From assembly GCA_963675375.2 (NCBI GenBank), contig OY776212.2, forward strand, positions 3,152,567 to 3,216,566: a stretch of DNA of 64,000 nucleotides, in the 5' to 3' direction. The position numbers and the translations under genes are program-made. Shown here piece by piece: positions 1 to 14,939 of the stretch (position 1 is the stretch's first letter; each line of letters starts with the position of its first letter). The notes under the pieces were generated by a model. It was not told the DNA's origin. It saw only the letters and a program-made list of their open reading frames with translations, and searched no databases. The stretch comes from Anaerolineales bacterium (GTDB taxonomy: Bacteria; Chloroflexota; Anaerolineae; Anaerolineales; UBA11579).

Positions 1-547
1 GGCCGGAAATGCCGGGGAAGAAGTATTTTGCTCCCCCCGAAAAACCTACCACCTCATGTGGAAATGTGGGGCCGAGAACCAAGATATGGTCGTAGTCCAT
101 CACCCTGGCATTGAGCTTGATCGGAATATCCCCACCCAAAGATGGATGCCAGCTGTCCCCAATGATGTCTTGCACCTCTTCCTGGGACAACGTGCCAATC
201 TGCTGGAGTGCCGCAGGTGTATCCCACTGGTGATTGAACAGCCCAATATGTTGATATTTACCGGTGCGCTCCGCTGAGGTGATCCCAACAAGATGATTCA
301 TCTGTGCTTCGGTCAGTGGGGGGTGTGTGCCCAGCGCCACCATAAAATCCAACTTTCCCGTGTCGGAAAGGGCTTCGACCAACATTTCAAACAGAGCAGG
401 CAATGGAATACTGCGCGTGTGGTCGGGGATCAACACCAAGACTTTTTGGTCCTGAAATCTCCCCGTCAACCCCTTATGGATGGTATCAGCCACCACATCG
501 TTGGATAATAGTTGACCATTGTTTGCTATTGCCTGAATTTCTACCAT
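1..547 (-). CDS. LarA-like (DUF2088) nickel-dependent racemase/epimerase family protein, N-terminal part. The gene runs off the window start.
   Basis: Absent from the ORF track because there is no stop in the window. My reverse-strand translation gives (MS)MVEIQAIANNGQLL...KVLVLIPDHTRSIPLP...DFMVALGTHPPLTEAQ...GPTFPHEVVGFSGGAKYFFPGISG. The PDHTR and GTH motifs are typical of the LarA family. A GAGGAG sits directly before the first ATG (553), so the second ATG (547) has the better spacing. Confidence 0.65.
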   Translation of the reverse strand, partial: MVEIQAIANNGQLLSNDVVADTIHKGLTGRFQDQKVLVLIPDHTRSIPLPALFEMLVEALSDTGKLDFMVALGTHPPLTEAQMNHLVGITSAERTGKYQHIGLFNHQWDTPAALQQIGTLSQEEVQDIIGDSWHPSLGGDIPIKLNARVMDYDHILVLGPTFPHEVVGFSGGAKYFFPGISG

Positions 548-686
548 GCTCATCTCCTCATTATTGCAGCCCCCCTACCAATTTCGCCATCATTTTAATC
601 CAGAAAAGAGATATTTTCAGGAAATCGGTAGATGTATTGCGCAGTTTATTGAGGCTTTTTTCTATTCAGGCAGCAGCCTGGGTTAA

Positions 687-720
687 AACATCTTTACCCA
701 GTTAGCTGGGCAAAGATGTT
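687..720 (-). terminator. Putative intrinsic terminator downstream of the rdhC-like gene
   Basis: 14-bp inverted repeat AACATCTTTACCCA / TGGGCAAAGATGTT with a 6-nt loop. The single mismatch becomes a G-U pair on the minus-strand RNA. The stem runs into UUUU on the minus strand, 57 nt after the stop at 777. Confidence 0.45.
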
Positions 721-776
721 GCTAAAAAGTTCAACCAAGATTAATCCCATGGACACCAAAACAAAGATCAACAGGA

Positions 777-2012
777 TCAGTTCAGCCCTTCTTTTCTTCT
801 TTTGGGCTTTATTTTTTTCCATAATTCCAATATCCATTTCCGAGCCATCCGAATAAAATCCACCACCGGGTCTATTGGGCATAGATACGTACACCAGGGG
901 CGTTTGACGAACAGTGAAACCACCAGCACAAGAGCCAACAGAATAAATTGTAAATTTGAGCCCAAGAAAGAGAACAAAGTACCAAAGATCTCATAGCTGG
1001 TGATTCCCGGACTGCGGAATAATAAGGCAACCACAATTGCAAACCACACCACACCGCGGCGCAGCCACATTAAGAAATTCCGGTAGCGTCCGGGAGAATA
1101 AACCTTTGCCCCTCCCACTGCGCCCATACACTCTTGCGCGGCACCAAAAGGGCAAAACCAATAACAATATGGATTTTTATTATCCACGGTGAATACGAAC
1201 AGAATACCTCCAAGCAGCAGATACCAGTACAGGCTGGTGCGCCAATTCGGCCAAAAGCCCAACAACAACTTATTGAAATAAGCCAGGGTCAACGGCGCGT
1301 TATACACAAAGCCCAACACCACCAAACCAACCAGCATCGCCACCCAGCGGAGTTGTTTCTTGTATTTAAATTTGCCCTGATGACCAATAAAACCAACCCC
1401 AAACAAAGCCAGCAGTGTAATTTCAGGAACGCCAAATACAATTTTGGGTTTGGCCTGTGACGGCAGTGATAGACCGAGTTGTTCACCTGCAACTTCCCTG
1501 CTCCCTGCTAAGACCGCTTGCGCAATCGCCCTGGATGTGTAGGTTGCACTGGTCACGCCATCAACATCTTCCCCAAGCTGGAAGGCATCCTGATAACTCT
1601 TCCCCAGCAAAGTGCTGACGTAGTCGCTTTCCATTACTTTGCGATACCAAGAAGGGGTTTCCCGGTGTTTGATCACCTTCAAACCAGAAACATTCCCTTC
1701 CAAATCTACCCCCACAGCCGCTTGTAAAGGGCCGCCATACCCATTGGCCTCGCCAATAGTCACGTACCCAATCAATTGATCAGCGCCATCGTCGGCATAG
1801 GCAGCATATGTGTCCGCCGATAATTTTTCAAAATGGGCGGCAGCAGGCATGGCTTCACTCAAAAAAGATTCAAGCTCACCTGATTCAAGCTGATATCCAA
1901 CCAGCCAGGCGGCTGCAAAGGTCAAGATCGCGACCACAGCCAGAATGCGCTCCCACTGCGGTTTTGTCTTCTTCTTTATTTTTTTCTCTGTAAAAATAAT
2001 CTGTTCAGACAT
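777..2012 (-). CDS. rdhC: RdhC/PceC-like membrane flavoprotein: periplasmic FMN-binding domain plus NosR/NapH-type polytopic domain with two CX3CP motifs
   Basis: 411 aa. N-terminal TM helix, FMN_bind-like DGVTSATYTSRAIAQAV (flavinylation-type S-A-T), several TM helices, and CYWFCPFGAAQEC and WCTYLCPIDP cysteine motifs. Sits in the same strand block as rdhAB. Confidence 0.7.
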   Translation of the reverse strand: MSEQIIFTEKKIKKKTKPQWERILAVVAILTFAAAWLVGYQLESGELESFLSEAMPAAAHFEKLSADTYAAYADDGADQLIGYVTIGEANGYGGPLQAAVGVDLEGNVSGLKVIKHRETPSWYRKVMESDYVSTLLGKSYQDAFQLGEDVDGVTSATYTSRAIAQAVLAGSREVAGEQLGLSLPSQAKPKIVFGVPEITLLALFGVGFIGHQGKFKYKKQLRWVAMLVGLVVLGFVYNAPLTLAYFNKLLLGFWPNWRTSLYWYLLLGGILFVFTVDNKNPYCYWFCPFGAAQECMGAVGGAKVYSPGRYRNFLMWLRRGVVWFAIVVALLFRSPGITSYEIFGTLFSFLGSNLQFILLALVLVVSLFVKRPWCTYLCPIDPVVDFIRMARKWILELWKKIKPKRRKEGLN

Positions 2013-2048
2013 AAATAAGTTTTCAAAAATTAGTTTATTAGAAAACAG

Positions 2049-3359
2049 CTATTCAATTTCATGAAGCAATTCTTTGGCTTTCCCGATCAGCGTGGGATCA
2101 TCAAAATCCTCAAAATAGCCAATTGCTTTCCGGCACCATTCCGCTGCCAGCACAAGATCACCCTGATCGCGATAACTCATTGCCAGCATGCAGCATTGCT
2201 CTCCTGCAATGCGAATATCACCCAGCTTTTCAGCCGCTTCCAAAGCAAGATGCGAATATAGCATGGATTGTTCTAGATGCCCAAGGTCTGCATTGATCGC
2301 CGCCAACCGGCCCAATAATCGAGCTTCGACCTCCCGCTTCTGTAGTCGTACAGAAAGCTCATGTGCAGCCTCGTAGTCTTGTAAAGCCGCCTCTAATTTT
2401 TCCTGGTCATAATAGGTATTTGCCCGATTCGTTAAGATCGTGAGCTGTGCGGTTTTGTCCTGCTGCTGCTCCGCAAAACGCAATGCAGCATCCATCACAT
2501 CAAGGGCTTCATCCAATTTGTTCTTGCTGATCAGCAGCATAATAAGCGCTTCTTCGTAAGATTTTTGAGTCAGATAGTCACCAGCCTCAATTGCAAGGGC
2601 TAAGGCTCTTCGGGTAGCTTTTAAACATTTCTTTGTGCGGCCTTCTTCTGCGTACGCGCGGACCAAATAACGCAGTACGTTCCGTTCACCTTCCAGGTTA
2701 CCCAACTCACCATAAAGGTCTTGCGCTCTTTCAAAAACGCCGATCATGGAAGCATAATCATCATAGCGAGCGTGGATCAAACCGATATTGTTTAAATAAC
2801 CGGCAATAGCCGGAGCGTCTTCCAGCTGTTCTGCCAGTTCCAAAGCGCGTTTAAAACCATCCAGTGCACCTTCAGCAGATGCCATCTGCATATATGCGCG
2901 CCCCAAATTTCCCTGGTGGATCATCTCTCGCTTAGGATCATTCAAAGTTTTGGCAATGCCAATGGCAGCAACCAAATTGTTAATTGCCGGTCCCAGATCG
3001 CCAGTTTCTATCAATACCAGGCCCATATTGCCTTGTGCGTCACAAACCATTTCCTGATTATCGATTTCTTCAGCGATTTCAAACACTTTCTGGAAACATT
3101 CATAGGCATCTTCCCGCCGTTGGATGTCGTATAACGCCCAACCTTGCGAACCAATCGTGTAAGCCTCCAGCATACGATCCTGGTTTACTGTTGCATTTTC
3201 AATAGCTTGTTCAAATGTAGCAACCCCTGATTCATAGGATTGTTGAGCAATAAGCTGAGTTCCTAATTGAACTAAAGAATAGCTGACAGCTACATAATTC
3301 CCGGCGGTCTGTGCGTCCTCAAGCTGTTTTTCTAGGGTTGCAATTGAGTCAAATGACAT
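2049..3359 (-). CDS. Tetratricopeptide-repeat (TPR) protein, cytoplasmic
   Basis: 436 aa. Repeated A/L/Y/G-rich ~34-aa helical repeats throughout (e.g. GNLGRAYMQMASAEGALDGFKRALELAE). No signal peptide or TM helix. Confidence 0.7.
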   Translation of the reverse strand: MSFDSIATLEKQLEDAQTAGNYVAVSYSLVQLGTQLIAQQSYESGVATFEQAIENATVNQDRMLEAYTIGSQGWALYDIQRREDAYECFQKVFEIAEEIDNQEMVCDAQGNMGLVLIETGDLGPAINNLVAAIGIAKTLNDPKREMIHQGNLGRAYMQMASAEGALDGFKRALELAEQLEDAPAIAGYLNNIGLIHARYDDYASMIGVFERAQDLYGELGNLEGERNVLRYLVRAYAEEGRTKKCLKATRRALALAIEAGDYLTQKSYEEALIMLLISKNKLDEALDVMDAALRFAEQQQDKTAQLTILTNRANTYYDQEKLEAALQDYEAAHELSVRLQKREVEARLLGRLAAINADLGHLEQSMLYSHLALEAAEKLGDIRIAGEQCCMLAMSYRDQGDLVLAAEWCRKAIGYFEDFDDPTLIGKAKELLHEIE

Positions 3360-3391
3360 TTTTTAATCCTTGGGTATATTTGGTAATACCT

Positions 3392-3434
3392 GGTTAGTTG
3401 GATTGTCCATGCTTTGTTGACAATCCAACTAACC
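3392..3434 (-). other. Perfect 16-bp stem-loop between rdhB and the TPR gene (possible terminator, attenuator or processing site)
   Basis: GGTTAGTTGGATTGTC - 11 nt - GACAATCCAACTAACC, 12 nt after the rdhB stop. No U-tract follows on the minus strand. Confidence 0.5.
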
Positions 3435-3445
3435 GTTATGCTAAA

Positions 3446-3748
3446 CTATTCTGCTATCTTCTGACGGTCCGCGGCTAACAAACGCCACAAACCAACGCCC
3501 AAAACAATCGATACAACGATCATCGGGATAAAAATACGCAACGCTGCATTGGGTTCATTTTCACCTAAGATCGTCATAGGAGCAGCCAGTGAAACATTGA
3601 ACAGCCCATACCACAAGGCGGCTAAAAGCCATTTCCACCAGGTCATTTTGAGCCCTAAATCTTTAGCCCAGGTAACTGCACCAACAGCCACCAAGATCAT
3701 CAGCATACCCATTACAAACCAGAATAAGTCTCCACTAAACATTGTCAT
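3446..3748 (-). CDS. rdhB: RdhB-like small membrane anchor protein (three TM helices)
   Basis: Roughly 98-100 aa once the start is trimmed. ATG at 3748 overlaps the rdhA TGA (ATGA). The alternative ATG at 3742 lies 7 nt after GGAG. Three hydrophobic helices: LFWFVMGMLMILVAVGAVTWA, WKWLLAALWYGLFNVSLAAPMTIL, LRIFIPMIVVSIVLGVGLWRLL. Lies immediately 3' of rdhA, as in rdhAB operons. Confidence 0.65.
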   Translation of the reverse strand: MTMFSGDLFWFVMGMLMILVAVGAVTWAKDLGLKMTWWKWLLAALWYGLFNVSLAAPMTILGENEPNAALRIFIPMIVVSIVLGVGLWRLLAADRQKIAE

Positions 3749-5244
3749 TCTCCTTTTTGTGGATTTGCAGGAGAGACCGCAAACCAATTTTCAATTTCCA
3801 GCCATTCAGGAGCAGGGCGGAAGCCTGCAAAACGGCCATCTGGCGGGTGGCGGTACTCTTGTGCATCTGGCATATCAAAAGCGCTTTTCTGCATCCAGAC
3901 CAATACGTCATTGACCAAACCGGTTGGGTCATTCACATCCGCAGTTTTCGCCAATTCGTGTACCCAATTGCTCTTACGGCTGAAGGGACAAACAGCCAGA
4001 CACAGCCGGCAGCCCAACGGCCCCATAGCTTCCATCCAGAAATTGAAGCATTTGGCGGTGTTGACGTACCAATGTTCGTATCCACGCAGTTCCATACCTT
4101 CTGGGGAATCTTCCATGCTGATCGCCCCGGATGGACATTGTTCTGCACAAATTTTGCAAGTGTTGCAAAAATCGGCTACGCCAAAATCAATGGGCTTGTC
4201 CACAGTCATCGGCACATTTGTAGTCACAACTGCCAAACGAAGGTTTGAACCGGTTTCTGGGCAAATGGTGTACCCGTGGCGACCGGTCTGACCAATCCCA
4301 GCATCCACCGCGATCGGTGGGACAACCAGATCATAGTGGGTAGGCGGGTGATGAGAGCGGGCTGGATAGCCGATGGACTTGATGAAGGCTGTTAAGCGGC
4401 CAGCGGCATTCCGCACCCGGTTGTAGCCATCGTAGCTGGTACCGTGCGCCGGGTTAGATAACATCTGATCCCACTCATGCGGGACGCCGACAACAATGGC
4501 ATATTCCCAATGAGCCGGCACTTCGTACGGGCCAGGTTCACCACCGCGCAAATTGCTGTCATAGCAAAAGTCTGGGTTGAGCTTGGTGATTCCGACAATG
4601 GTCGCACCGTACTGGTGTGCAATCTTCTTGATCAACTCAGCGGCATGGTCTGGGCTTTTAAATGGCAATGGTTCACCAATTTCATGTACTTCTGTACCGG
4701 CAAGACCAAAGCGGGTCATCTTATAATCTGAAATTTCTGGGGGTTCGGTGGGTTCAGGCGGGTAGAAATTGAAGAGTTCTTCCCAGCCGTTTGCATACGC
4801 ATCTGCAAGCGCAAAATACGCATCATATTTCATGTGGTTTTCAGCAGCAGTAGGCATCACCACAGTCTGACATTCCCAATCCAATTCCAGCGTTTCCGGG
4901 TTCTCCTCGTAGAACTTAGCTAACGGCTCAGGAAAAGCGTCCAAGCTATCACCCAATTTCCACCCGGCGGCTACTGCCTGACCAAAAACACCCGTGCGGG
5001 CAAAAACATAGTCGGTAAGGTAGCCAGGGCGTCTGATTTCACCCACTACTTTGTAAGGTTTGTGATCAATTTCAAACGCTTTGCGGTTGAAGGTTTGTTC
5101 CACACCCTCAAAGTTTTTGTATCCGGTATAACTATCGATATCTTCTCCAGCGGCCAAACCAGAACCAGCAAAACCAATTACTTGCAGGGCTACCCCAGCC
5201 GCTCCCCCTATCTTCAGGAAATCTCTTCGTGAGAGTTCTCCCAT
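3745..5244 (-). CDS. rdhA: Reductive dehalogenase catalytic subunit homologue (RdhA family, corrinoid/Fe-S)
   Basis: 499 aa. Twin-arginine signal MGELSRRDFLKIGGAAGVAL. C-terminal CNTCKICAEQCP and C-x15-CRLCLAVCP ferredoxin-like motifs in the arrangement typical of RdhA. AAGGAGG Shine-Dalgarno at 5251-5257 (reverse strand). Confidence 0.8.
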   Translation of the reverse strand: MGELSRRDFLKIGGAAGVALQVIGFAGSGLAAGEDIDSYTGYKNFEGVEQTFNRKAFEIDHKPYKVVGEIRRPGYLTDYVFARTGVFGQAVAAGWKLGDSLDAFPEPLAKFYEENPETLELDWECQTVVMPTAAENHMKYDAYFALADAYANGWEELFNFYPPEPTEPPEISDYKMTRFGLAGTEVHEIGEPLPFKSPDHAAELIKKIAHQYGATIVGITKLNPDFCYDSNLRGGEPGPYEVPAHWEYAIVVGVPHEWDQMLSNPAHGTSYDGYNRVRNAAGRLTAFIKSIGYPARSHHPPTHYDLVVPPIAVDAGIGQTGRHGYTICPETGSNLRLAVVTTNVPMTVDKPIDFGVADFCNTCKICAEQCPSGAISMEDSPEGMELRGYEHWYVNTAKCFNFWMEAMGPLGCRLCLAVCPFSRKSNWVHELAKTADVNDPTGLVNDVLVWMQKSAFDMPDAQEYRHPPDGRFAGFRPAPEWLEIENWFAVSPANPQKGE

Positions 5245-5324
5245 ATTGTGCCTCCTTTCAAAAGGACATGGTGAGTGGGTTCAGCACAAACGCTGCAGGT
5301 ATCGACATCGACACCCTCTTCTCT

Positions 5325-5456
5325 CGAGACACAAGCTCTAACCAAATATCTGACTTCCTGCAAAAAAGCAGGTCACAGTTGCGGGACAGTGCCGGAATAG
5401 ATCATTAAAACGATCTTCACCGACTTCCTTGGATAGACTGGAACCCTGAATAAGTA
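5325..5456 (-). promoter_or_regulatory. Cobalamin (B12) riboswitch-like 5' leader of rdhA
   Basis: Minus-strand RNA reads ...CUAUCCAAGGAAGUCGGUGAAGAUCGUUUUAAUGAUCUAUUCCGGCACUGUCCCGCAACUGUGACCUGCUUUUUUGCAGGAAGUCAGAUAUUUGGUUAG... This contains the GGAAnnnGGUGAA, CCCGCAACUGU and AGUCAG (B12-box) elements. CUAUCCAAG pairs with UUUGGUUAG to close the junction. Boundaries are approximate. Confidence 0.7.
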
Positions 5457-5500
5457 CGCTTTATTCTAAAAAACTTGTCCTAATGGGAAAATACTTAATT

Positions 5501-5518
5501 TGTGTGATTTTTCACACA
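5501..5518. promoter_or_regulatory. Perfect palindrome TGTGTGA-TTTT-TCACACA (candidate transcription-factor site)
   Basis: 7-bp arms with a 4-bp spacer. Lies about 35 bp upstream (minus-strand sense) of a TAGAAT -10-like hexamer at 5463-5468 and of the riboswitch 5' end. Confidence 0.5.
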
Positions 5519-5535
5519 CGCCCCCTGTTTTCGAA

Positions 5536-5551
5536 TCACACAAAAGTGTGA
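5536..5551. promoter_or_regulatory. Perfect palindrome TCACAC-AAAA-GTGTGA (second, permuted copy of the same half-site)
   Basis: 6-bp arms with a 4-bp spacer, 10 nt after the stop of the LuxR-type regulator gene. Uses the same TGTGA/TCACA half-sites as 5501-5518 in the opposite arrangement. Confidence 0.5.
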
Positions 5552-5561
5552 GGAGGTAAAC

Positions 5562-8294
5562 TTAAACCCGATTTTTCATAATTCCTAATTGTGTGGCCCG
5601 ATTGATCGCTTGTGTCCGGTTGTTCACTTCTAATTTCGTATAAATATTCTTGATATGTGACTTTAGAGTATTCTCGGAGATCATCAATTCTTGAGATAAA
5701 TTTTTATAACTCAAACCAGCGGCTAACAATTGGATCACATCTAGTTCGCGCAAGGTAAGAAGTTGATAAGACTCTGGCTCTCGATAACGAATACCCAACT
5801 TAGAAAGCCGGGTGTTTTCTTCCTCAAAAGCGTGCACAAGCTGAGTGATATATGTCTGGATTGATGGAGAAATTTGCATCTGTTGATTTTGGGATAATGC
5901 CACCAATAACGAGTGTATTCGCCAGCCTTTATCCAAAAATGAGCGCACATACCCCTCATCCACAGCAATTTCTAATAGATGTAAAAGTAATTTTTGCGCC
6001 TGGTTATAGTCTCCTGCCTGGTCATACGCTAATACTAAAGTTAAACCTATCTGGATCAGATCCCATTGACGCTCTTGGCTTTGGGCTAATTCGTACAACT
6101 TTAAAATCAAATCCATCACTTCTTCAGTTCTTTGCTCATGGAGCCATACCAAGGCCAGCACACGCAATTGGTAATCTATTGATGAATTAAAATCCTCATC
6201 TAATGGTGGAACTACCATGCCGGAAGCCCAGCGGAGTGCATTGTCAAACTGCCCTTGGGCCAAATAATTGCGCGCCTGGATCGCTTCCAATCCAGCAATG
6301 ACTGTTTGGGGGCGTCCATTCTTATTGGCGACTGTTTTTGCATACGCCAACTTCTCTTCAACAAGGGTATATTCTCCCAACGCAATCTTTATCTTGGCAA
6401 AGCTCAAATAGCCTATTAATAACCGTTCAAGATAATCACCATTCTCAGCAATCTGTATTCCCTCTTCAAAGAAAGATTCTGCCTGAGCCAGGTCATTCAT
6501 CTCATAATACAAATTTCCCATCCCAATAATTGCGTTTGAGAACACATTGCTTTTATGCACGCCCATCATAGTGGACTGACGACTGATTTCATCATAGTAT
6601 TTTCGTGCCAGGGACAGTTCGCCCTGTGCAGCCACCGATTGTGCATGGTAAGAAGACCATAATAAATTCATCAGGGGATAATTGATGATCTCTATCATTT
6701 CCATGGCCTTCTTTAGCGAGCTGCGCGCTTGTACTACATTGCCCAGGTGAAGACACGCCGAACCATAATGCCCGTAAGCGATACATTGCCCCAAGAGTTC
6801 ATTCTCTGGAAGTAATGCGGCTGCTTTTTGAGTCAACTGCCGGGATTTAACCGCATCGATTTTGCTGTGAACTGCCACCGCGGCTAAAAAAACAGACTTG
6901 TAGCCAATAATGATATCTTTCTCTGCCTGAGATATCTCAGGCAATTGATCCAGATCATTCCAAATCCAATCAATAATACGCTCCGATTCTTTAAAATCTC
7001 CCTTATCCAACCACGCGATCACATAATGCTGCCATAATTGTCCAACTCGGCGTAAAATATCCTTTGGAATACTTTGCATCCAGCGAATTGCCTGATCGCG
7101 TCCACCACTCGAAATAATCTTTGTGATTCTTGGGTCAATCAGCTGGGCGGCATATTCATATTCTTCCCCTTCTAAGCCATATTCAATCGCCTCTTCCATA
7201 TAATTATGGGCTTCAAACCATTGTGCCGCTCGTAAATAATGGGTAGATTGAAATTTCCGTAAGAGGCTGGGCTGATTTTGTAACAATTCAGATAGCAAAT
7301 GATGATACCGGTACCAGGTCCGTTTATTATCCAGGGGGATGATGAATAAATTTGCATGGATTAAATAATCAATGATTTCTTGGCTGTTGTCTGTTTCCAG
7401 GACATCATCACAGAGAGGTGCGGAAAAACGCCTAAGCCCTGCGGTCAGCGCCATAAATTGCTGCACTTCTTCAGGCTGATGAGAAAAGACCTCGTTGAAT
7501 AAGTAATCCCCGATCAACCGGTCGTCCCCTGACAAATATTGAAGGATATCCTCTACCTCCGGATCATTCCTGGTACTGATCGCCGCCAATTGCAAGCCAG
7601 TCACCCACCCCTCCGTATGCTGATCTAGAAGGTTGACTTGTTCGGGAGTAAGGTTCACCCTAAAAAATTTTCGGACGAATTCAGCGGTCTCTTGGTAATT
7701 GAATCGCAAATCGAACGTATCTATGACCAAGGCCTGATTTTTTGCCCGAAGATCCGTAATTGAAAAAGGCAATTCAGCCCGGCTGGTGATCACAATTTGC
7801 AAATTGGGCGGCAAGTTTTGCAGCAGGTAAGAAAGAGCGTAATGGACTTTAGGGTCACTAATCAAGTGAAAGTCATCCAGCACCAAATGGGTATAGCTGC
7901 GCATGCAAGCCAGGTCGTTGATGATGAAAGTAAGTAATGTGTCGATAGGTGGGGGGTCGGGCGAGCGAATGATGCCGAGAACTGAACTACAAATACCAGA
8001 ATCTACTTGCTGTAATGCAGATATACAATAAGAAAGAAAACGTCCGACATCATTATCTGCCTGATCTAAAGAGTACCAGGCGACAGCCTCCGTACTTTTT
8101 GAAAACCACTCTGTAAGCAAAGTTGTTTTTCCATATCCCGCCGGGGCAGTAACCAAGATCAGTTTTCTTTCTTTACCGGCAATCAGTTGATCGACCAAAC
8201 GAGGCCGAACAACCAATTCATTCCGCACTTTGGGAATATAAAGCTTTGTAACTAATAAATCATTTAGATGGGGGTTTTTCGGATCATATTCCAT
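5562..8294 (-). CDS. MalT-like STAND ATPase / TPR-like helical repeats / C-terminal LuxR-type HTH transcriptional regulator
   Basis: 910 aa. Walker A APAGYGKTTLL, Walker B-like HLVLDDFH, a long helical repeat region, and a C-terminal LTLRELDVIQLLAAGLSYKNLSQELMISENTLKSHIKNIYTKLEV (GerE/LuxR HTH). Confidence 0.8.
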   Translation of the reverse strand: MEYDPKNPHLNDLLVTKLYIPKVRNELVVRPRLVDQLIAGKERKLILVTAPAGYGKTTLLTEWFSKSTEAVAWYSLDQADNDVGRFLSYCISALQQVDSGICSSVLGIIRSPDPPPIDTLLTFIINDLACMRSYTHLVLDDFHLISDPKVHYALSYLLQNLPPNLQIVITSRAELPFSITDLRAKNQALVIDTFDLRFNYQETAEFVRKFFRVNLTPEQVNLLDQHTEGWVTGLQLAAISTRNDPEVEDILQYLSGDDRLIGDYLFNEVFSHQPEEVQQFMALTAGLRRFSAPLCDDVLETDNSQEIIDYLIHANLFIIPLDNKRTWYRYHHLLSELLQNQPSLLRKFQSTHYLRAAQWFEAHNYMEEAIEYGLEGEEYEYAAQLIDPRITKIISSGGRDQAIRWMQSIPKDILRRVGQLWQHYVIAWLDKGDFKESERIIDWIWNDLDQLPEISQAEKDIIIGYKSVFLAAVAVHSKIDAVKSRQLTQKAAALLPENELLGQCIAYGHYGSACLHLGNVVQARSSLKKAMEMIEIINYPLMNLLWSSYHAQSVAAQGELSLARKYYDEISRQSTMMGVHKSNVFSNAIIGMGNLYYEMNDLAQAESFFEEGIQIAENGDYLERLLIGYLSFAKIKIALGEYTLVEEKLAYAKTVANKNGRPQTVIAGLEAIQARNYLAQGQFDNALRWASGMVVPPLDEDFNSSIDYQLRVLALVWLHEQRTEEVMDLILKLYELAQSQERQWDLIQIGLTLVLAYDQAGDYNQAQKLLLHLLEIAVDEGYVRSFLDKGWRIHSLLVALSQNQQMQISPSIQTYITQLVHAFEEENTRLSKLGIRYREPESYQLLTLRELDVIQLLAAGLSYKNLSQELMISENTLKSHIKNIYTKLEVNNRTQAINRATQLGIMKNRV

Positions 8295-8359
8295 ATTCGA
8301 AATTCATTGCAATTAAATTTACAGCCATTAGTATATCAGATATGTAAAATCACACATTA

Positions 8360-8379
8360 TAACCTCAGTTACGTTTAGG
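8360..8379 (+). repeat. Solo copy of the TAACCTCAGTT(A/T)CG terminal-repeat motif
   Basis: TAACCTCAGTTACGTTTAGG shares its first ~14 nt with the inverted repeats at 8590 and 8734. Confidence 0.4.
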
Positions 8380-8450
8380 CAACGATACAAATGTATCCAC
8401 TGGAACCGTAACTACACGCCCACCCCAAAACTAGAGGATATCCAAAAGAT

Positions 8451-8561
8451 ATGCACCAGCAGGCACTGGAACTATCTATCGATGGGATGAATATTCGGTG
8501 GATTGCTCGCCATTTAGGTGTCAATCATGAGACTGGCACGAAAATCTCGTTGCTTTTCTAG
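8451..8561 (+). pseudogene. 36-codon remnant resembling the N-terminal HTH of a transposase
   Basis: My translation: MHQQALELSIDGMNIRWIARHLGVNHETGTKISLLF*. The (I/L)ARxLGV(S/N)xxT pattern is typical of IS-transposase HTH domains. No catalytic domain follows. Family not assignable. Confidence 0.35.
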
Positions 8562-8589
8562 CTGCCCATTACCCAGTCTCTTAACTACT

Positions 8590-8734
8590 TAACCTCAGTT
8601 TCGTATAAGGAATTTTTTTTCTCTAAAATGCACGTTTTTCATCGAGAATGCACTAAAAACAAGCATTTTTGAGGTCAAATGTTACTTATTAATCACTCAA
8701 AATCAAATTTTATTCTTATCCGAAACTCAGGTTA
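8590..8734. mobile_element. MITE-like element, about 145 bp, bounded by ~23-bp imperfect inverted repeats
   Basis: Left end TAACCTCAGTTTCGTATAAGGAAT. Right end (reverse complement) TAACCTGAGTTTCGGATAAGAAT. AT-rich non-coding interior. Confidence 0.45.
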
Positions 8735-8911
8735 CTTATAGCATTAATAAAAAAACAAATCCAACCCAATTACAACATTGAAAGTCACAGTCGATCAGGC
8801 TGGTTTACAAGGTTTATTGCGGAAACTGTATCGCATAGCATTCGCGTAATTCCCGCAACTTATGTTACACCGTGATATAAAGTATTTTTTGTAAGAGATA
8901 ACGGGGAAAAC

Positions 8912-11152
8912 TTATTTTGGGGATCCTTCTAGAATTCGAGCATACAAATTGAGCAACCTTTTCTCCATAATCTCCCAAGAAAACTGAGAATTGTAGGCTT
9001 TTCTAGCGTTTTTTCCCATTTCAGCTGCTAATTTAGGATTTTGAGCAATATAATTTATTGCTTCCTCAATTTCTCTTTTATTGTCATATTCAACGACTAA
9101 CCCGCAATTATATTCGCGAACCAAAGAGTCAATGTGCGTATTTTTTGCAACTAATACTGGCTTACCTAGCATCATAGCTTCAAATATCTTGTTGGGGCTT
9201 GCATATTTGTGATTAGGAATTGCAGGATCATAAAGAGCATAGAACAAGTCAGCTTTTGCACCAAGCTTTAGAGAGTCTTGGTAATCAATTCTGCCATGGA
9301 AACAAATGTTTTCTAATATATCAATCCTTGTTTTAATCGCTTCCTCATCCCCTCCGAAGCCCGCTAAATCAAGGATCCACTCGGGTCTCGTTTTCAATAT
9401 ATCAAATAGTGTAAATAAGCCTCGTTCTTTTAACAACATCCCCACGTAAACTATTCTTATCTCGCCTTTATCAGACTGCTTTTGATTAGTTTGCATAATA
9501 TCAACATTATATGTCTGGACATCTTTAGGCGTATTGTTAATAATGGTAAGATTTTTGGGATTTGACCCTTTTATTTGCTCAATACGACATTCGTCCGTTA
9601 TGATCACTCCATCAGCTTTATCGATAATTCTTATTTCTTGTAAACTGATCAACTTTTTCAACCATTCTGGGGTAAAACGGATATGATCGCTGTAAAAATC
9701 AAATAGATCATAAACTAAAAGATTTTTTGATAACACTTTTGTTACCATATAAGCAGGGATGGCGGTATCAAAATCACAAGAGTGAAATACATCATATTTA
9801 TTTCTATTCTTAATCAGCCAAATTAGTTCAGATATTTGCCAAAATAAATAGCTTGGCAAATTGTATATTCCCCGCCCATATTTTGCTGAAATTGATTTTC
9901 TATAAAAAGTAATCCCATTTTCTACTTCAACCGGTAAAGATTTACCAGATCGATCCCAACCAAGAATATCAATAGAATAGCCTTGATTTGCTAATGCATA
10001 TGCAGTTTTTTCCACTCTAGGATCTGGAGCAACTGGGTTGCTTCTTATAATTAATATTTTCGAGCCAGTCTGAGAAGCAAGTTCAGCTTCATATATCTTT
10101 TGAAAGAAATCTAATTTCTTGATTTCCTTCTCTGAAGTATCAATATGTTGAATATCCTCCCTATTTACCCTTACTCCCATATTTTTGTGAACAAATTCTT
10201 CAATTTTATCAATGCTTGCTTCAATATTTTTTTCGATATTGGGTAATTGAAGAATAAATGGTGTATCTTGCTCAAAGTCAGTATCTTCGTAAGCAATAAT
10301 TGTTGGCAAACCATAGGCTAAATATTCCCGCAACTTAAGCGGTGCCATCTGATTCATACCAATACGATGTAAACCCAGAGTACCGATAGCTATATCCGAA
10401 TTTTTTATTATCTTTTTATAAATAGCTGTGTCTATAAACCCATAAAAATGGACATTTTCCAAACATTTTTTTATTTTTGTATTTTTTTGATTTAAACCAA
10501 TAATATGAAATTGCCACTTGGGGAATATTTCAGCTAATCGGATGACCTTATCTAAGGCTATCCATGGAAAATCTGAGCTTGTAAGAAGAACTAAATTTGG
10601 ATTTTGATTAACTGGAGCTGGCGTAGAATCAATTGCATTTAAATCAATGCTATCACCACATACTAACGTAGGGCGATTATGCTTTTTTACCCAATGAGCC
10701 AAATCCTCTGTTAGGGTCACAAAACCTTTTGCATGAGAAAATACCCACCGATAAGTTAACCGATGAAATAAATAACCAATTAAATTATGGATGTGCTTAT
10801 ATTCTTTATCGTAATTTGAATTAACTTCTACAATGGTAGGAAACCGATTAATCAAGGCGATTAATCCCGGATAGTAGCTGCTATATCTCCAATAAATTAG
10901 ATCAGGTTTCCACTTCTGAATTGCTTTTTGAGCATTCATCGCTTTTTGGAATAGTGCAATGTAGTTTTTTGTTTCAAAATATTCAATTGAAATATCATCT
11001 AAACCCGGCCAAACGTCCGTCACTGGCCTGGTCAAACAAAAGACCTTTACCTCATGTCCTGCATTTTGCCAAAAGCGCACTTGTCTGGCAATTTTTTTTA
11101 GCACCCCAGACCCTATTCCAATATTTATTCTCGCATAATACGCTATCTTCAT
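8912..11152 (-). CDS. Fused double glycosyltransferase (two GT4/GT1-type GT-B modules)
   Basis: 746 aa. Each half starts with a MKI/ILII Rossmann-like GT-B N-domain. The C-terminal half ends with the EAMMLGKPVLV (E-x7-E region) typical of GT4. Very AT-rich. Confidence 0.6.
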   Translation of the reverse strand: MKIAYYARINIGIGSGVLKKIARQVRFWQNAGHEVKVFCLTRPVTDVWPGLDDISIEYFETKNYIALFQKAMNAQKAIQKWKPDLIYWRYSSYYPGLIALINRFPTIVEVNSNYDKEYKHIHNLIGYLFHRLTYRWVFSHAKGFVTLTEDLAHWVKKHNRPTLVCGDSIDLNAIDSTPAPVNQNPNLVLLTSSDFPWIALDKVIRLAEIFPKWQFHIIGLNQKNTKIKKCLENVHFYGFIDTAIYKKIIKNSDIAIGTLGLHRIGMNQMAPLKLREYLAYGLPTIIAYEDTDFEQDTPFILQLPNIEKNIEASIDKIEEFVHKNMGVRVNREDIQHIDTSEKEIKKLDFFQKIYEAELASQTGSKILIIRSNPVAPDPRVEKTAYALANQGYSIDILGWDRSGKSLPVEVENGITFYRKSISAKYGRGIYNLPSYLFWQISELIWLIKNRNKYDVFHSCDFDTAIPAYMVTKVLSKNLLVYDLFDFYSDHIRFTPEWLKKLISLQEIRIIDKADGVIITDECRIEQIKGSNPKNLTIINNTPKDVQTYNVDIMQTNQKQSDKGEIRIVYVGMLLKERGLFTLFDILKTRPEWILDLAGFGGDEEAIKTRIDILENICFHGRIDYQDSLKLGAKADLFYALYDPAIPNHKYASPNKIFEAMMLGKPVLVAKNTHIDSLVREYNCGLVVEYDNKREIEEAINYIAQNPKLAAEMGKNARKAYNSQFSWEIMEKRLLNLYARILEGSPK

Positions 11153-11553
11153 TTGTGAACATTTCCCTGAGGCAAAATCTGTTTTTCAGAATCTAGTAGC
11201 TAAAAAATCCGATTTTTTATTTTACAATTTTGGATCCAAAGGAAACCTTGATCATTTTCCCGACTTGCCGATTTTATCATACCTATTCTTACGGCTAATG
11301 AATAGTTTTCTAAATAGCTATCCAAAATAAACACTCTGAATACAATTATTACATATCAATTGTGATAAACTAATCGACAAATAATCGGGTTTGCAAATAA
11401 CATCAAAGAGGAATCATTTCATGTATTGTAATATTTCACAGCAAGGTTGCATTTTGAATACACACCTTCTCATTTTCTCCACATCCACTCTTTGTTCATC
11501 ACATATTAGGACCCAATAATTTCCTGCAAAGAATCCCAAACAATATATTTTTT

Positions 11554-13362
11554 ATGAAATCAATTCAGAATCTAAAAGAATTTAAAATCGCTGGAGTATT
11601 TGACGCATTTTCTATGGAATGTATTGGAGACGAATGTGAACTGATCCTCCCCACACCAAACAATTGGCATGAAATCTTAGAGAAAAGCACTCCAGATTTA
11701 TTAATGGTTGAATCTGCATGGCAGGGGAATATGGGCAGTTGGGAAAATAAAATTGCGCAATATCCTAATAAGGGGTCAAAATTGCAAGATATGGTGGCCT
11801 ATTGTAATAAAAAAAATATTCCCACAGTATTCTGGAATAAAGAAGATCCTGTTTTTTTTAACGCCTTTATTGGATCAGCAAAACTCTTTGATTATATCTT
11901 CACTACAGATGCCAGCATCATCCATCGATACAAAATCATTACAAACAAAAATAATGTGTTCGTGATGCCCTTTGCAGCACAGCCAAAAATTCATAATCCT
12001 ATAGAAATCCTCGATCGCTCCAATAAAATAGTCTATTCGGGATCATATTACAGTAGGCGCTATTATTCAAGAATGCGGGATTTCAATCGTTTGGTTTCTA
12101 TTTGCAAAGATTATGGATTAGTGATTTATGATCGCAATTATTCCAATAATTTACCTCAATTTTCTTTTCCCAAGCATATGAACAAATACATTGTTGGAAA
12201 CCTTAAGGTAGAAGATTTATATATAGCGAATAAAGGATATAAATTCTCAATCAACGTAAATAGTGTAAAACATTCTCCTACAATGTTTTCGCGGAGGGTT
12301 TTTGAGATGATTGCATCTAATACTCCCATAATCAGCTCTTGGTCAAAAGGAATTGAAAAGATATTTGGAAACTTAGTTATCAACAGCGACAATATTCAAG
12401 AAGTGGGGAAAAAATTAGATACATTGTACAAAGATAATCGATTATATAATTTGTATCGCCTCAGGGGTTTACGCTTTGTCATGCAGCAGCACACTTATGA
12501 AAAACGCTTGCTAAATATGTTATCAATGGTCGGTTTCAACATAAACACATCTATCCCAGGAGTAACCATTATTGTGAATGTAAACAATAATGAATTAGCT
12601 CTCAAGCAAGCAAAGGAAACTATCAAGCGCTGGCACTATCCCCAAAAACAAATAATTATCTTGCACAAAGGTTTACAATCAAATGACAAAGATAGTAAAT
12701 ATTTATATCTTGACCAAACAAAACAAAAAGATTTATTGGACAATATAAAATACAATCGGGTCATTTACCTAGGACAAACCTCATACTATGGAGAGAATTA
12801 TTTAAATGACCTAATCCTTGCAACACAATATTGCGATCAAAAAATAATAGGAAAAGGGAATTATTACACTATTGAAAAAGGGGAAATGCAGCTTATTACA
12901 AATGGGAAAGTTTATAAAAAAGCACTACACATGGGATTAGAGCGCTGCTTATTTTCTAAAAAACTCTTAGAAGACAAACGTTTATTTACTGCTATTCTCG
13001 AAAATGATTTCCATTTCGATCTTGGACAATTAAATATCCCTATGTTTAGTATTGATGAGTTTAATTACATTTCACATTATAAAAGTAAGAATGATGAAAA
13101 GTATTTACAACTTATTGATGACAGCTTAAATCCACATTTAAATTCTTTCTTACATTCAAAGGAAGAAAAATCACTGAAACAGACCGTTAGAAATTTCCGT
13201 AGTTTTGGGTATTTTCTATCCAAACTTTGGGATAAAATTTGGCTATCATTGACAAAAAATCAATACCATAAGTTTTGGATGTATCAAAGAAAAACAATCG
13301 AATTTGGAAAAAAAACAGTAATAAAAATCCGTTCATTTTGGAGCAGGAAAATTGATTACTAA
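11554..13362 (+). CDS. CgeB-like/DUF3880-type glycosyltransferase with a long C-terminal extension
   Basis: 602 aa. The N-terminal region PDLLMVESAWQGNMGSWENKI...NIPTVFWNKEDPVFFNAF...DYIFTTD resembles the CgeB/YkvP spore-maturation glycosyltransferase family. Very AT-rich. Confidence 0.45.
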   Translation: MKSIQNLKEFKIAGVFDAFSMECIGDECELILPTPNNWHEILEKSTPDLLMVESAWQGNMGSWENKIAQYPNKGSKLQDMVAYCNKKNIPTVFWNKEDPVFFNAFIGSAKLFDYIFTTDASIIHRYKIITNKNNVFVMPFAAQPKIHNPIEILDRSNKIVYSGSYYSRRYYSRMRDFNRLVSICKDYGLVIYDRNYSNNLPQFSFPKHMNKYIVGNLKVEDLYIANKGYKFSINVNSVKHSPTMFSRRVFEMIASNTPIISSWSKGIEKIFGNLVINSDNIQEVGKKLDTLYKDNRLYNLYRLRGLRFVMQQHTYEKRLLNMLSMVGFNINTSIPGVTIIVNVNNNELALKQAKETIKRWHYPQKQIIILHKGLQSNDKDSKYLYLDQTKQKDLLDNIKYNRVIYLGQTSYYGENYLNDLILATQYCDQKIIGKGNYYTIEKGEMQLITNGKVYKKALHMGLERCLFSKKLLEDKRLFTAILENDFHFDLGQLNIPMFSIDEFNYISHYKSKNDEKYLQLIDDSLNPHLNSFLHSKEEKSLKQTVRNFRSFGYFLSKLWDKIWLSLTKNQYHKFWMYQRKTIEFGKKTVIKIRSFWSRKIDY

Positions 13363-13713
13363 CCCTTTCAGATTAGACTAATTTGGAATATTGGATCTAA
13401 ACATTTTCCAATGGATTCGGTAATTAAGGTAAGCAAAAATTTCACGGAGTGAAGATGCACCATACAAATGAAGAATATCTAAACATTGCTGTCATAGTAC
13501 CTTACTATCAGGTAGAAAAAGAAATTAGAGAGGTATTACTTCAGATCCCTGAATTTGTAAAACACATCATTGTTGTAGATGATCAGAGTCCAGATAACAC
13601 TGAAAAAGTTGTAAAAGAGTTACAGCTAAACTACTAGATAGAGATGGACAAATGGACTCATCCCTGATTCTTCAATTTGTGCACCCAATCTTGGATGGTA
13701 GAGTAAACTACAC

Positions 13714-14939
13714 TAGACCTCTTTCATAAGTTGTAAAAGTCAAAACAAGTTCTGACACTCATGATATTAAGCGCTGATAAAATACGAGTTAGAATCTTGC
13801 TGCGGAATCACCTCCTGCGAAAATAGTGTATCAAGCTCCTTCTCTTTTGACAAATGACGTGTGTCAGAGAAGGTTTGCATCGGCGTACGCCCGTGACAGT
13901 ATTTCCCACTGTGCGGGCGTTCTTCGTTGTAAAAATGGATCCAAGTATCTAGGTCGGCCTGCAAATCTTCCAGTGAAGCGTAGATTTTCTTGCGGAAAGC
14001 AAGATCATAAAATTCTTCTTTGATGGTGCGGTGGAAGCGTTCGCAGATGCCGTTGGTTTGGGGATGGCGGGTCTTGGTACGACTGTGGTCGATATTTTCG
14101 ATGGCCAGATAGAGTTGGTATTCGTGGTTTTCCAACTTGCCATTGTATTCTGTGCCCCGGTCAGTCAGGATACGCAGCAGATCAACTTCTTGAGTCTCAA
14201 ACCAGGGGATGACCCTGTCATTGAGCAGATCGGCAGCAGTGATAGCATGCTTGCTGGTGTACAGCTTGGCAAAACCTGCTTTGCAATAGGTATCTATGAA
14301 AGTTTGCTGGTAAATACGGCCAATGCCTTTGATCGTGCCCACGTAGTAGGTATCCTGGGCTCCTAGATAGCCAGGATGTTCCGTTTCGATCTCACCGTGG
14401 GCTTCTCGTTCTTCTTTGGCTTTTTCCATCGCCTGAAGCTGCGATTCGGTCAAAACCAGGTTTTCAGCGGCAGCCTTTTCTTCCAGCGCTTTCAGACGCT
14501 TTTTGAAGGTTTCCAGGCCATGACGCAACCAGATTGAACGCACTCCGCCAGGTGAAACAAAAACACCTTCTTGCTTGAGTATATTGGATACGCGGAGTTG
14601 CCCCAGTGCGGGATTGTCAGTGGCAATCTTCACCACCGCATCTTCCACCTGTGGGTCTACTCGATTCTTTGGATTTGGTTTACTGCGGCTCAGTTCGCGC
14701 AGACCTTCAGAACCCTGTTCATCGTACAATTCTTTGAACCGGTAATAGCTGTCCCGTGAGAACCCCATGATCTTGCATGCTTCGCTAACATTCCCCAGGT
14801 GTTCTGCCAGGTTGATTAGCCCCATTTTATTTTTGACTACTTTTTCTGCTGTGGTCATCTTTCACTCCTTTTCAATCTCTTGATTGTAATTGGAGTGTCA
14901 GATTAAGTCTTGACTATCTCAACTTATGAAAGAGGTCTA
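13714..14939 (-). mobile_element. IS481-family insertion sequence (1226 bp)
   Basis: Perfect 20-bp terminal inverted repeats TAGACCTCTTTCATAAGTTG, with further partial matches out to about 47 bp ending in CTGACACTC. Single transposase ORF. TA/CTA at both junctions. Confidence 0.75.
13767..14858 (-). CDS. IS481-family DDE transposase (HTH plus rve integrase core)
   Basis: 363 aa. N-terminal HTH (LGNVSEACKIMGFSRDSYYRFKE), LRELSRSKPNPKN, and an integrase core ending HPQTNGICERFHRTIKEEF...YNEERPHSG. Confidence 0.8.
   Translation of the reverse strand: MTTAEKVVKNKMGLINLAEHLGNVSEACKIMGFSRDSYYRFKELYDEQGSEGLRELSRSKPNPKNRVDPQVEDAVVKIATDNPALGQLRVSNILKQEGVFVSPGGVRSIWLRHGLETFKKRLKALEEKAAAENLVLTESQLQAMEKAKEEREAHGEIETEHPGYLGAQDTYYVGTIKGIGRIYQQTFIDTYCKAGFAKLYTSKHAITAADLLNDRVIPWFETQEVDLLRILTDRGTEYNGKLENHEYQLYLAIENIDHSRTKTRHPQTNGICERFHRTIKEEFYDLAFRKKIYASLEDLQADLDTWIHFYNEERPHSGKYCHGRTPMQTFSDTRHLSKEKELDTLFSQEVIPQQDSNSYFISA

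Follow-up and report, generated by a model that had tools for sequence, protein, structure and literature searches.

The 64,000-nucleotide stretch of an Anaerolineales bacterium genome analyzed here (contig OY776212.2, positions 3,152,567 to 3,216,566; hereafter the window) carries on its minus strand a reductive dehalogenase gene, rdhA, followed by rdhB, a tetratricopeptide repeat (TPR) gene, and rdhC, and preceded by a gene for a MalT-like regulator. This module is probably a self-contained, respiratory-type organohalide-reduction operon in a heterotroph, with two controls stacked on one leader. The leader runs for 317 bp from the regulator stop codon to the rdhA start (5561..5245, minus strand); it is densely structured and is conserved among regulator-linked loci. 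A first-pass annotation of this DNA had described the module as governed by the regulator. The link to the regulator is indeed conserved, but it accounts for only half of the control, since the leader also carries a cobalamin riboswitch, which on comparative grounds is a second, previously unreported control layer beside it. Such a pairing of a regulator with a B12 riboswitch was found described nowhere for reductive dehalogenases. A more specific proposal is made tentatively, namely that the leader is a natural activating corrinoid riboswitch for a corrinoid-dependent dehalogenase, stacked on a STAND activator and answering to substrate and cofactor together.

The riboswitch was recognized by reading the leader by eye and then by a local covariance search, and sequence comparison establishes both its presence in the rdhA leader and its conservation. 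The aptamer (5337..5437, minus strand) has stems P3 and P4, the loop L5 (UCCCG), a short P6 hairpin, and the B12 box AAGUCAGAUAUUUG; GGUGA was found with L5 and the B12 box as the conserved core. Homologous loci compared with the window are numbered L001 to L030, and percentages given with them are identities of their RdhA to that of the window. In the Rfam clan CL00101, for which the gathering scores are 31.5 bits (RF00174) and 50 bits (RF01482), RF00174 matches were found directly upstream of rdhA at 33.6-48.8 bits in L005, L006, L007, L012, L013, L015, and L026, and by sequence L028, L029, and L030 have the element as well. A covariance model (R1), made from ten orthologues and without the window, gave a single, full-length match in the window (5436..5310, 95.5 bits, E 1.7e-23) and no match upstream of rdhA in the loci that lack a MalT-like gene. 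Across an alignment of 11 sequences, pairing in P3 and P4 is 100%, and 5 of the pairs show compensatory changes; the observed covariation score was reached by none of 500 shuffles, and slid controls collapsed.

Several observations count against a simple assignment. No Rfam family matched at its gathering threshold over the whole window, the aptamer scoring 44 bits with RF01482 in the local search (E 6.8e-7), below the gathering score of 50. The window has an A where a conserved G precedes L5, and neither R1 nor Rfam found a riboswitch upstream of rdhA in L014 and L024, although both have kept the regulator and the palindrome discussed below. In a full-text literature search, no paper connected rdhA with a cobalamin riboswitch. 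The cobalamin riboswitches of known organohalide respirers act on operons for corrinoid synthesis and uptake and not on rdhA (PMC4285132), and the Breaker-lab "rdhA motif" of Dehalococcoides described in the literature is a weak candidate that differs from the riboswitch in this leader. It was also noted that GGGTTCC just 5' of the aptamer (5443-5449) is complementary to GAACCC after the terminator U tract (5277-5282, minus strand). The pairing, of 6-7 nt, can be drawn in L005, L012, and L028 as well, and in L013, where the first strand reads GGGATCC, it is kept through two G-U changes; minimum free energy folds form it, enclosing the aptamer and the expression platform.

Between the aptamer and the terminator lies an invariant motif, yCUCGAGAGAAGr, represented in the window by CUCGAGAGAAG (5318..5328, minus strand), a candidate L13 kissing loop. 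Its CGAGA can form four pairs with L5 UCCCG, leaving one C bulged. In L029 and L030, L5 reads UGCCG and the motif CGAGCA, and with a register shift the two are still able to pair. The pair closing the candidate loop alternates between U-A and C-G across loci. A reading of the element (CUC-GNRA-GAAG) as a plain GNRA tetraloop hairpin was dropped in favor of the kissing loop after the match to the L5 consensus (PMC10327014); the two readings differ in three inner pairs only. A canonical intrinsic terminator follows the aptamer at 20-40 nt in eight of nine orthologous leaders tested. L029 and L030 have no canonical terminator; in both, GCCUC of P13/L13 complements the Shine-Dalgarno sequence, the likely target of the riboswitch in these two loci. 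When the motif is kept single-stranded, the P13 stem overlaps the 5' strand of the terminator by 4-8 nt in L028, L012, L013, and L005, which are the four closest relatives of the window and make up 4 of the 11 leaders.

The first activating corrinoid riboswitch was found upstream of cobT in Alkalihalobacillus halodurans; there a kissing contact of four pairs and a bulged C between L5 (consensus UCCCG) and L13 stabilizes P13, and the terminator takes its 5' strand from the 3' strand of P13 (PMC10327014). The rdhA leaders resemble it in L5, in a candidate L13 of ~10-11 nt, in its possible 4-bp pairing with a bulged C, and, in four leaders of eleven, in the strand common to P13 and the terminator (Procknow et al. 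2023, PMC10327014); the platform of the window itself looks eroded. Unlike at cobT, the gene downstream encodes a corrinoid-dependent enzyme and not a step in cobamide biosynthesis. The rdhA riboswitch is somewhat favored to act as an ON switch, because making the enzyme only when its cofactor is present makes physiological sense and because the sharing between P13 and terminator matches the published activating mechanism (PMC10327014).

Precedent weighs the other way, as all characterized corrinoid riboswitches but one repress (PMC10327014; PMC4285132). A conventional OFF switch, in which corrinoid would favor the terminator and rdhA would be expressed most at low corrinoid, is accordingly a serious if doubtful possibility, and the leaders themselves offer it some footing. 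The terminator hairpin is wholly outside the aptamer, and the terminator 5' strands of L005, L013, L006, and L028 contain 5-6 nt complementary to GCGCUGU of the aptamer, a pairing that could serve as an antiterminator in the apo state. The motif can also pair, by its 5' half, with the leader as an extended P1 in L026 and L007, so that ligand could remove an antiterminator. As a general architecture this extended P1, formed from the motif and the 5' leader, was rejected, for it needs a transcription start upstream of the predicted -10 element and is not found generally. The activating anatomy is not general either: P13 is weak and has no overlap with the terminator in L006, L007, L015, and L026. 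Nor does the kissing loop show column-wise covariation, and none can be counted, because the pairing is invariant in most sequences and changes in L029 and L030 with a register shift. Set against repression are the lack of physiological sense in shutting off a corrinoid-dependent enzyme when its cofactor is plentiful, the activating design of the strand common to P13 and the terminator in the four closest relatives, and, in L029 and L030, the prospect that formation of P13 would free the Shine-Dalgarno sequence.

Whichever its sign, the expression platform of the window looks eroded: it allows no P13 stem, a tandem GUCGAU-GUCGAU stands in place of the terminator 5' strand, and the terminator region (5285..5316, minus strand) is reduced to an 8-bp hairpin (GGGUGUCG/CGAUACCU) followed by GCAGCG and a weak U tract, UUUGUG. 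Corrinoid control may therefore be weakened in this genome. Farther downstream, sequence reading and folding place the rdhA Shine-Dalgarno sequence AAGGAGG at 5251..5257 (minus strand), where it can pair with an upstream CCUUUU in a small hairpin, CCUUUUGAAAGGAGG (5251-5266). Similar CUUUUU-GAAAGGAGG arrangements can be seen in L012 and L013, and the hairpin may add a translational layer.

The product of rdhA (3745..5244, minus strand; 499 amino acids) is predicted by profile to be a catalytic subunit exported by twin-arginine translocation (TAT) and holding a corrinoid and two [4Fe-4S] clusters. It scores 177.1 bits with TIGR02486 against a curated cut-off of 160.35, and only 50.5 bits with the QueG profile, for which the cut-off is 200. 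The TAT signal, SRRDFLK, is recognized by PF10518 (24.9 bits, cut-off 22.7), and the iron-sulfur motifs are CNTCKICAEQCP (CX2CX2CX3CP) and a second CX13CX2CX3CP. Y274 and R336, which align with Y426 and K488 of NpRdhA, are invariant in 20 RdhA homologues. RdhA was placed by comparison with solved structures and profiles. The first-pass annotation had named membership of a non-dehalogenase clade as a reason to abandon its reading; by the available tests RdhA lies outside such a clade, as it clears TIGR02486 and keeps the catalytic Tyr and Arg.

The remaining membrane components are of the respiratory type. RdhB (3446..3742, minus strand; 98 amino acids) is a small membrane anchor with two strong transmembrane segments and a weaker, Trp-rich middle one in a 19-residue hydropathy window; it has no Pfam match itself and is 35-69% identical to homologues carrying PF27193 (VcrB). 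RdhC (777..2012, minus strand) is a NosR/NapH-type membrane protein with five transmembrane segments by hydropathy prediction, a flavin mononucleotide (FMN)-binding domain (FMN_bind PF04205, 1.9e-14), and Fer4_5 (PF12801, 3.2e-12), in agreement with its earlier description. Its two CX3CP motifs are CYWFCP and CTYLCP, and a flavinylation-type motif, TSAT, lies at residue 154. ApbE follows rdhC in orthologous loci, some of which add Tat genes. The window differs in this respect, no ApbE or Tat gene having been found within it.

From the genomic surroundings the first-pass annotation had suggested a facultative or non-respiratory role, and the surroundings are as it described: glycosyltransferases, a transposase, sugar transporters, and dnaE within the 64 kb give a non-specialist context. 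An RdhA-like enzyme that does not respire organohalides, whether a dehalogenase that detoxifies or serves catabolism without conserving energy, or a corrinoid reductase whose substrate is not halogenated, would suit such a generalist heterotroph. Among solved structures RdhA also matches the catabolic NpRdhA best (153.5 bits), ahead of the respiratory PceA (115.9 bits); R552, by which NpRdhA binds its substrate, is replaced by W403; and members of the clade are named by homology only, none being characterized. The anatomy of the module gives this role no support, and it is considered unlikely. The TAT signal, RdhB, and flavinylatable RdhC in the window, with ApbE and TatABC in orthologous loci, make up a membrane-bound, outward-facing respiratory layout, whereas enzymes of the NpRdhA type are cytoplasmic fusions without RdhB; the TIGR02486 and QueG scores point the same way.

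Directly upstream of rdhA and in the same orientation, as the first-pass annotation had it, a gene at 8294..5562 (5562..8294, minus strand) encodes a 910-amino acid MalT-like STAND/LAL protein comprising a P-loop nucleoside triphosphatase, a winged helix, a MalT-type TPR sensor, and a GerE/LuxR helix-turn-helix. Matches to PF17874 TPR_MalT (9.5e-49, 166.9 bits) and GerE PF00196 (3.6e-16, 59 bits) are strong, those to AAA_16/AAA_22 weak; Walker A reads APAGYGKT and Walker B LVLDD, and homologues carry PF25873 WHD_MalT. Residues 13-906 align to positions 2-899 of the NF003420 MalT profile at 387.5 bits. As this is below the equivalog cut-off of 537, the regulator is by profile a member of the MalT family and not a MalT orthologue, which counts against the mechanism proposed below; ATP- and ligand-gated oligomerization is inferred from homology only.

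The regulator travels with rdhA. In at least 10 distinct loci a homologue of it immediately precedes rdhA, and the MalT-like gene is there in every locus whose RdhA is 65% or more identical and whose upstream DNA reaches far enough. It is adjacent and co-oriented in L005 (81%), L024/L025 (71%), L006 (70%), L012 (70%), L013 (69%), L014 (69%), and L007/L015 (65-66%); a contig with a 78% identical RdhA (P0003) has a GerE fragment in the same position, and in L026 (65%) five opposite-strand genes separate rdhA from the regulator gene, 3.3 kb upstream. The genes flanking the regulator-rdhA unit vary among loci. In the reverse direction, a blind look-up of three regulator homologues (67%, 39%, and 39% identical) showed each of them to precede an rdhA-rdhB-TPR-rdhC-small ORF-ApbE series (ORF, open reading frame), followed in two of the three by TatA/B(/C). 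The first-pass annotation had made its proposal depend on conservation of the regulator beside orthologous rdhA genes, and that conservation is thus found from the RdhA side and from the regulator side alike. Below ~63% RdhA identity other regulators take the place of the MalT-like gene. L009 has TetR and a resistance-nodulation-division efflux pump instead, and a sigma-54 enhancer-binding protein adjoins rdhA in L027 (1-1515, minus strand) and L002 (297-1937), that of L002 also having a GAF domain; L010 and L001 have neither a MalT-like gene nor a replacement regulator. Because the regulator is kept at 65% RdhA identity and above and replaced below ~63%, the association is conserved within the clade, and regulators are swapped between clades. 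A close strain has also been sampled, as a 65.6-kb ENA contig (P0134) encodes a regulator 96% identical to that of the window.

Two palindromes in the leader are candidate operators. Site 1 (5536..5551) is a perfect palindrome, TCACAC-TTTT-GTGTGA, and site 2 (5502..5517) reads GTGTGA-AAAA-TCACAC; each occurs once in the 64-kb window, against 0.09 and 0.12 occurrences expected by chance, respectively. Their centers are 34 bp apart, and site 2 ends 10 bp upstream of the -35 hexamer of a promoter predicted by sequence reading at 5463..5491 (minus strand; -35 TTTTCC, 17-nt spacer, -10 TAGAAT), which puts the centers ~88 bp (site 1) and ~54 bp (site 2) upstream of the predicted transcription start. 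A generic consensus scan for promoters and terminators made no call in the leader, so the promoter rests on comparative reading: its geometry recurs in orthologues (e.g. TTGTCT-17-TATACT in L030), and the spacing of the palindromes to the -35 hexamer is fixed across loci. Palindromes are present in all 13 regulator-linked loci, in degenerate form in L024. Site 1 is matched at 11 or more of 12 positions in 12 of the 13, and site 2 is conserved fully or as a AAAATCACAC half-site, spaced 33-36 or 26 bp from site 1. None was found in the five loci without a MalT-like gene that were compared. By analogy, sites placed upstream of a weak -35 hexamer are typical of a classic activator layout.

It is very unlikely that the MalT-like protein is not the rdh regulator and that the palindromes are bound by a CRP/FNR-type factor like CprK or belong to the 3' end of the regulator gene as RNA hairpins: the half-sites TGTGA/TCACA are CRP/FNR-like and hence could be bound by another factor, site 2 has the N4 spacing of FNR/CprK sites, CprK-type control is a characterized precedent, and in most loci site 1 follows the regulator stop codon by ~10 nt, but the palindromes keep company with the MalT-like gene in 13 of 13 loci and occur in 0 of 5 without it, no CRP/FNR gene is present in any surveyed neighborhood, no U tract follows the palindromes, their spacer is TTTT or AAAA depending on the locus, as fits a DNA palindrome readable on either strand, and both remain before rdhA in L026, far from the distant regulator gene, and so belong to the rdhA promoter rather than to the regulator 3' end.

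In the rest of the module, all five long ORFs were found on the minus strand at the coordinates first assigned to them (777-8294), and profile and motif searches agree with the families proposed; the leader, a 41-amino acid ORF (819..694), and a hairpin between rdhB and the TPR gene had gone unmentioned. The earlier description of rdhB as coupled to rdhA by an ATGA overlap holds insofar as the overlap exists (in-frame ATG at 3748), but this start is probably off by two codons. The Shine-Dalgarno sequence GGAG lies 1 nt from the ATG at 3748 and 7 nt from that at 3742, and homologous rdhB genes begin 1-3 nt after the rdhA stop codon, as the 3742 start does at 2 nt; from this spacing and these positions the gene is likely 3742..3446. 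The hairpin that follows (3392..3434, minus strand) has a perfect 16-bp stem and a folding energy of -30 kcal/mol. Of ten other loci folded, nine also have a strong hairpin between these genes (L005, L006, L007, L009, L024, L026, L028, L029, and L030), with stems of 11-16 bp and unrelated sequences, apart from those of the window and L028, which are alike; a U run follows only some of them. Recurrence in position despite unrelated sequence suggests an attenuator or 3'-end stabilizer that sets rdhAB above the accessory genes.

The TPR gene (2049..3359, minus strand) encodes a 436-amino acid, all-TPR protein. It is predicted to be cytoplasmic, as first annotated, a signal peptide and a transmembrane segment both being absent. 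The gene is present in all loci with RdhA of at least 61% identity and absent from rdhABC loci at 56-59%. The protein is not a paralogue or decoy of the regulator sensor domain, a relationship ruled out by BLASTP (E 0.23). In a PDB search the protein matched only generic peptide-binding TPR scaffolds, e.g. LGN/Pins; a chaperone role like that of RdhT is a guess by analogy. The small ORF (694..819, minus strand; 41 amino acids) has a single transmembrane segment, overlaps the end of rdhC, and is 51% identical to a 38-amino acid ORF of L028; ORFs were called at this position in seven further loci, and that of L030 also matches the window by tblastn.

Beyond the module, a reading frame that runs off the left end of the window (1-560, minus strand) occupies the place of ApbE in orthologous loci; on sequence reading, with no profile involved, its motifs PDHTRSIP, GTHPP, and FPHEVVGFSGGAKY resemble the N-terminal domain of a LarA-type nickel-dependent racemase. 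On the other side, beside the regulator gene, positions 8000-14900 form a low-GC island (34-36% versus 45-51% elsewhere). Large genes for glycosyltransferases lie in it together with a transposase gene (13767..14858; rve_3 and helix-turn-helix domains), which suggests a polysaccharide locus acquired horizontally. Corrinoid genes adjoin the module in several other loci: cobA/btuR with an RF00174 riboswitch of its own in L024 (4053-4206, minus strand), a cbiG-type biosynthesis gene in L028 (from 11289 onward), and a BtuFCD-like ABC transporter in L030 (3405-6299).

In the mechanism proposed, the GerE domain of the regulator would bind both palindromes upstream of the weak -35 promoter. By analogy with MalT, ATP and an inducer, plausibly the organohalide substrate or a related aromatic, would release the regulator into an oligomer that activates transcription. 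On the nascent leader, corrinoid binding would form the kissing loop between L5 (UCCCG) and L13 (CGAGA) and stabilize the hairpin P13. Because P13 and the terminator share a strand in the closest relatives (3' in the former, 5' in the latter), the ligand would prevent termination, and rdhA would be made only with cofactor available (ON, as for A. halodurans cobT). Regulator and riboswitch together would then act as an AND gate of substrate and cofactor. RdhA would receive its corrinoid and iron-sulfur clusters in the cytoplasm, possibly while held by the TPR protein as a chaperone-like scaffold, and, once loaded, would leave through the TAT pathway and dock on RdhB. An ApbE from elsewhere in the genome would flavinylate RdhC, which would relay electrons across the membrane, and the accessory genes are probably expressed less than rdhAB because of the post-rdhB hairpin.

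Characterized rdh regulation involves CprK/RdhK, MarR-type RdhR, or two-component systems. To our knowledge, only these three regulator types are known for rdh genes, and they have been studied in a few specialist organohalide respirers. The first-pass annotation knew of no characterized STAND regulator for rdh, and a full-text literature search likewise found no paper tying a MalT/STAND regulator to rdh genes. The nearest well-described layouts are pceABCT and cprTKZEBACD of Desulfitobacterium and Dehalobacter, with which the window has in common a TAT-exported RdhA, an RdhB anchor, an FMN-binding NosR/NapH-type RdhC, a dedicated cytoplasmic accessory protein, and a palindrome upstream of the promoter, bound by the activator there and a candidate operator here. 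In place of the CprK (RdhK, CRP/FNR) of those clusters, the window has a 910-amino acid STAND ATPase with a GerE domain; its accessory protein is all-TPR, whereas theirs is the trigger-factor-like RdhT; and a B12 riboswitch is present in the leader, none being reported there. In marine Desulfobacterota the rdhABC clusters of Desulfoluna spongiiphila have sigma-54 activators, with uncharacterized LuxR and MarR genes near rdhA2 (PMC7031245). Their rdhA-rdhB-rdhC order is that of the window, and the nearest relatives without a MalT-like gene, L027 and L002, have sigma-54 activators too; the TPR gene, palindrome, and riboswitch, in contrast, are not described for the Desulfoluna clusters (PMC7031245).

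Resemblance to MalT of Escherichia coli and other LAL regulators extends to the P-loop, the MalT-type TPR sensor, the GerE domain, and candidate sites upstream of a weak -35 hexamer. Unlike the asymmetric MalT boxes, however, the candidate operators here are 6-N4-6 palindromes, and the target is a respiratory reductase operon. A requirement for both a substrate, sensed by a protein regulator, and B12, sensed by a riboswitch, has a counterpart in Listeria and Enterococcus, where B12-riboswitch small RNAs (Rli55/EutX, AspocR) gate eut/pdu operons. Those RNAs act in trans, by regulator sequestration or as antisense RNA, whereas the dual requirement proposed here would be exerted by a riboswitch in cis, in the operon leader.

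The generalist bacteria that keep the module belong to uncultured lineages, most of them marine or from sediment. The STAND type would be a fourth, signal-integrating type of rdh regulator, and it comes with a clean candidate operator, so that the inducer could be screened for directly, a route to the natural substrates of these enzymes. Through the riboswitch, expression of the dehalogenase would be tied to the supply of corrinoid, which has long been discussed as an ecological limit on dehalogenation. Should the switch prove activating, it would be just the second ON corrinoid riboswitch known in nature and could serve B12 biosensors as a ready-made part. Stacked on the STAND activator, it would also be the first B12 ON switch to act in cis on a gene for a B12-dependent enzyme, and organohalide respiration would gain a new class of regulation.

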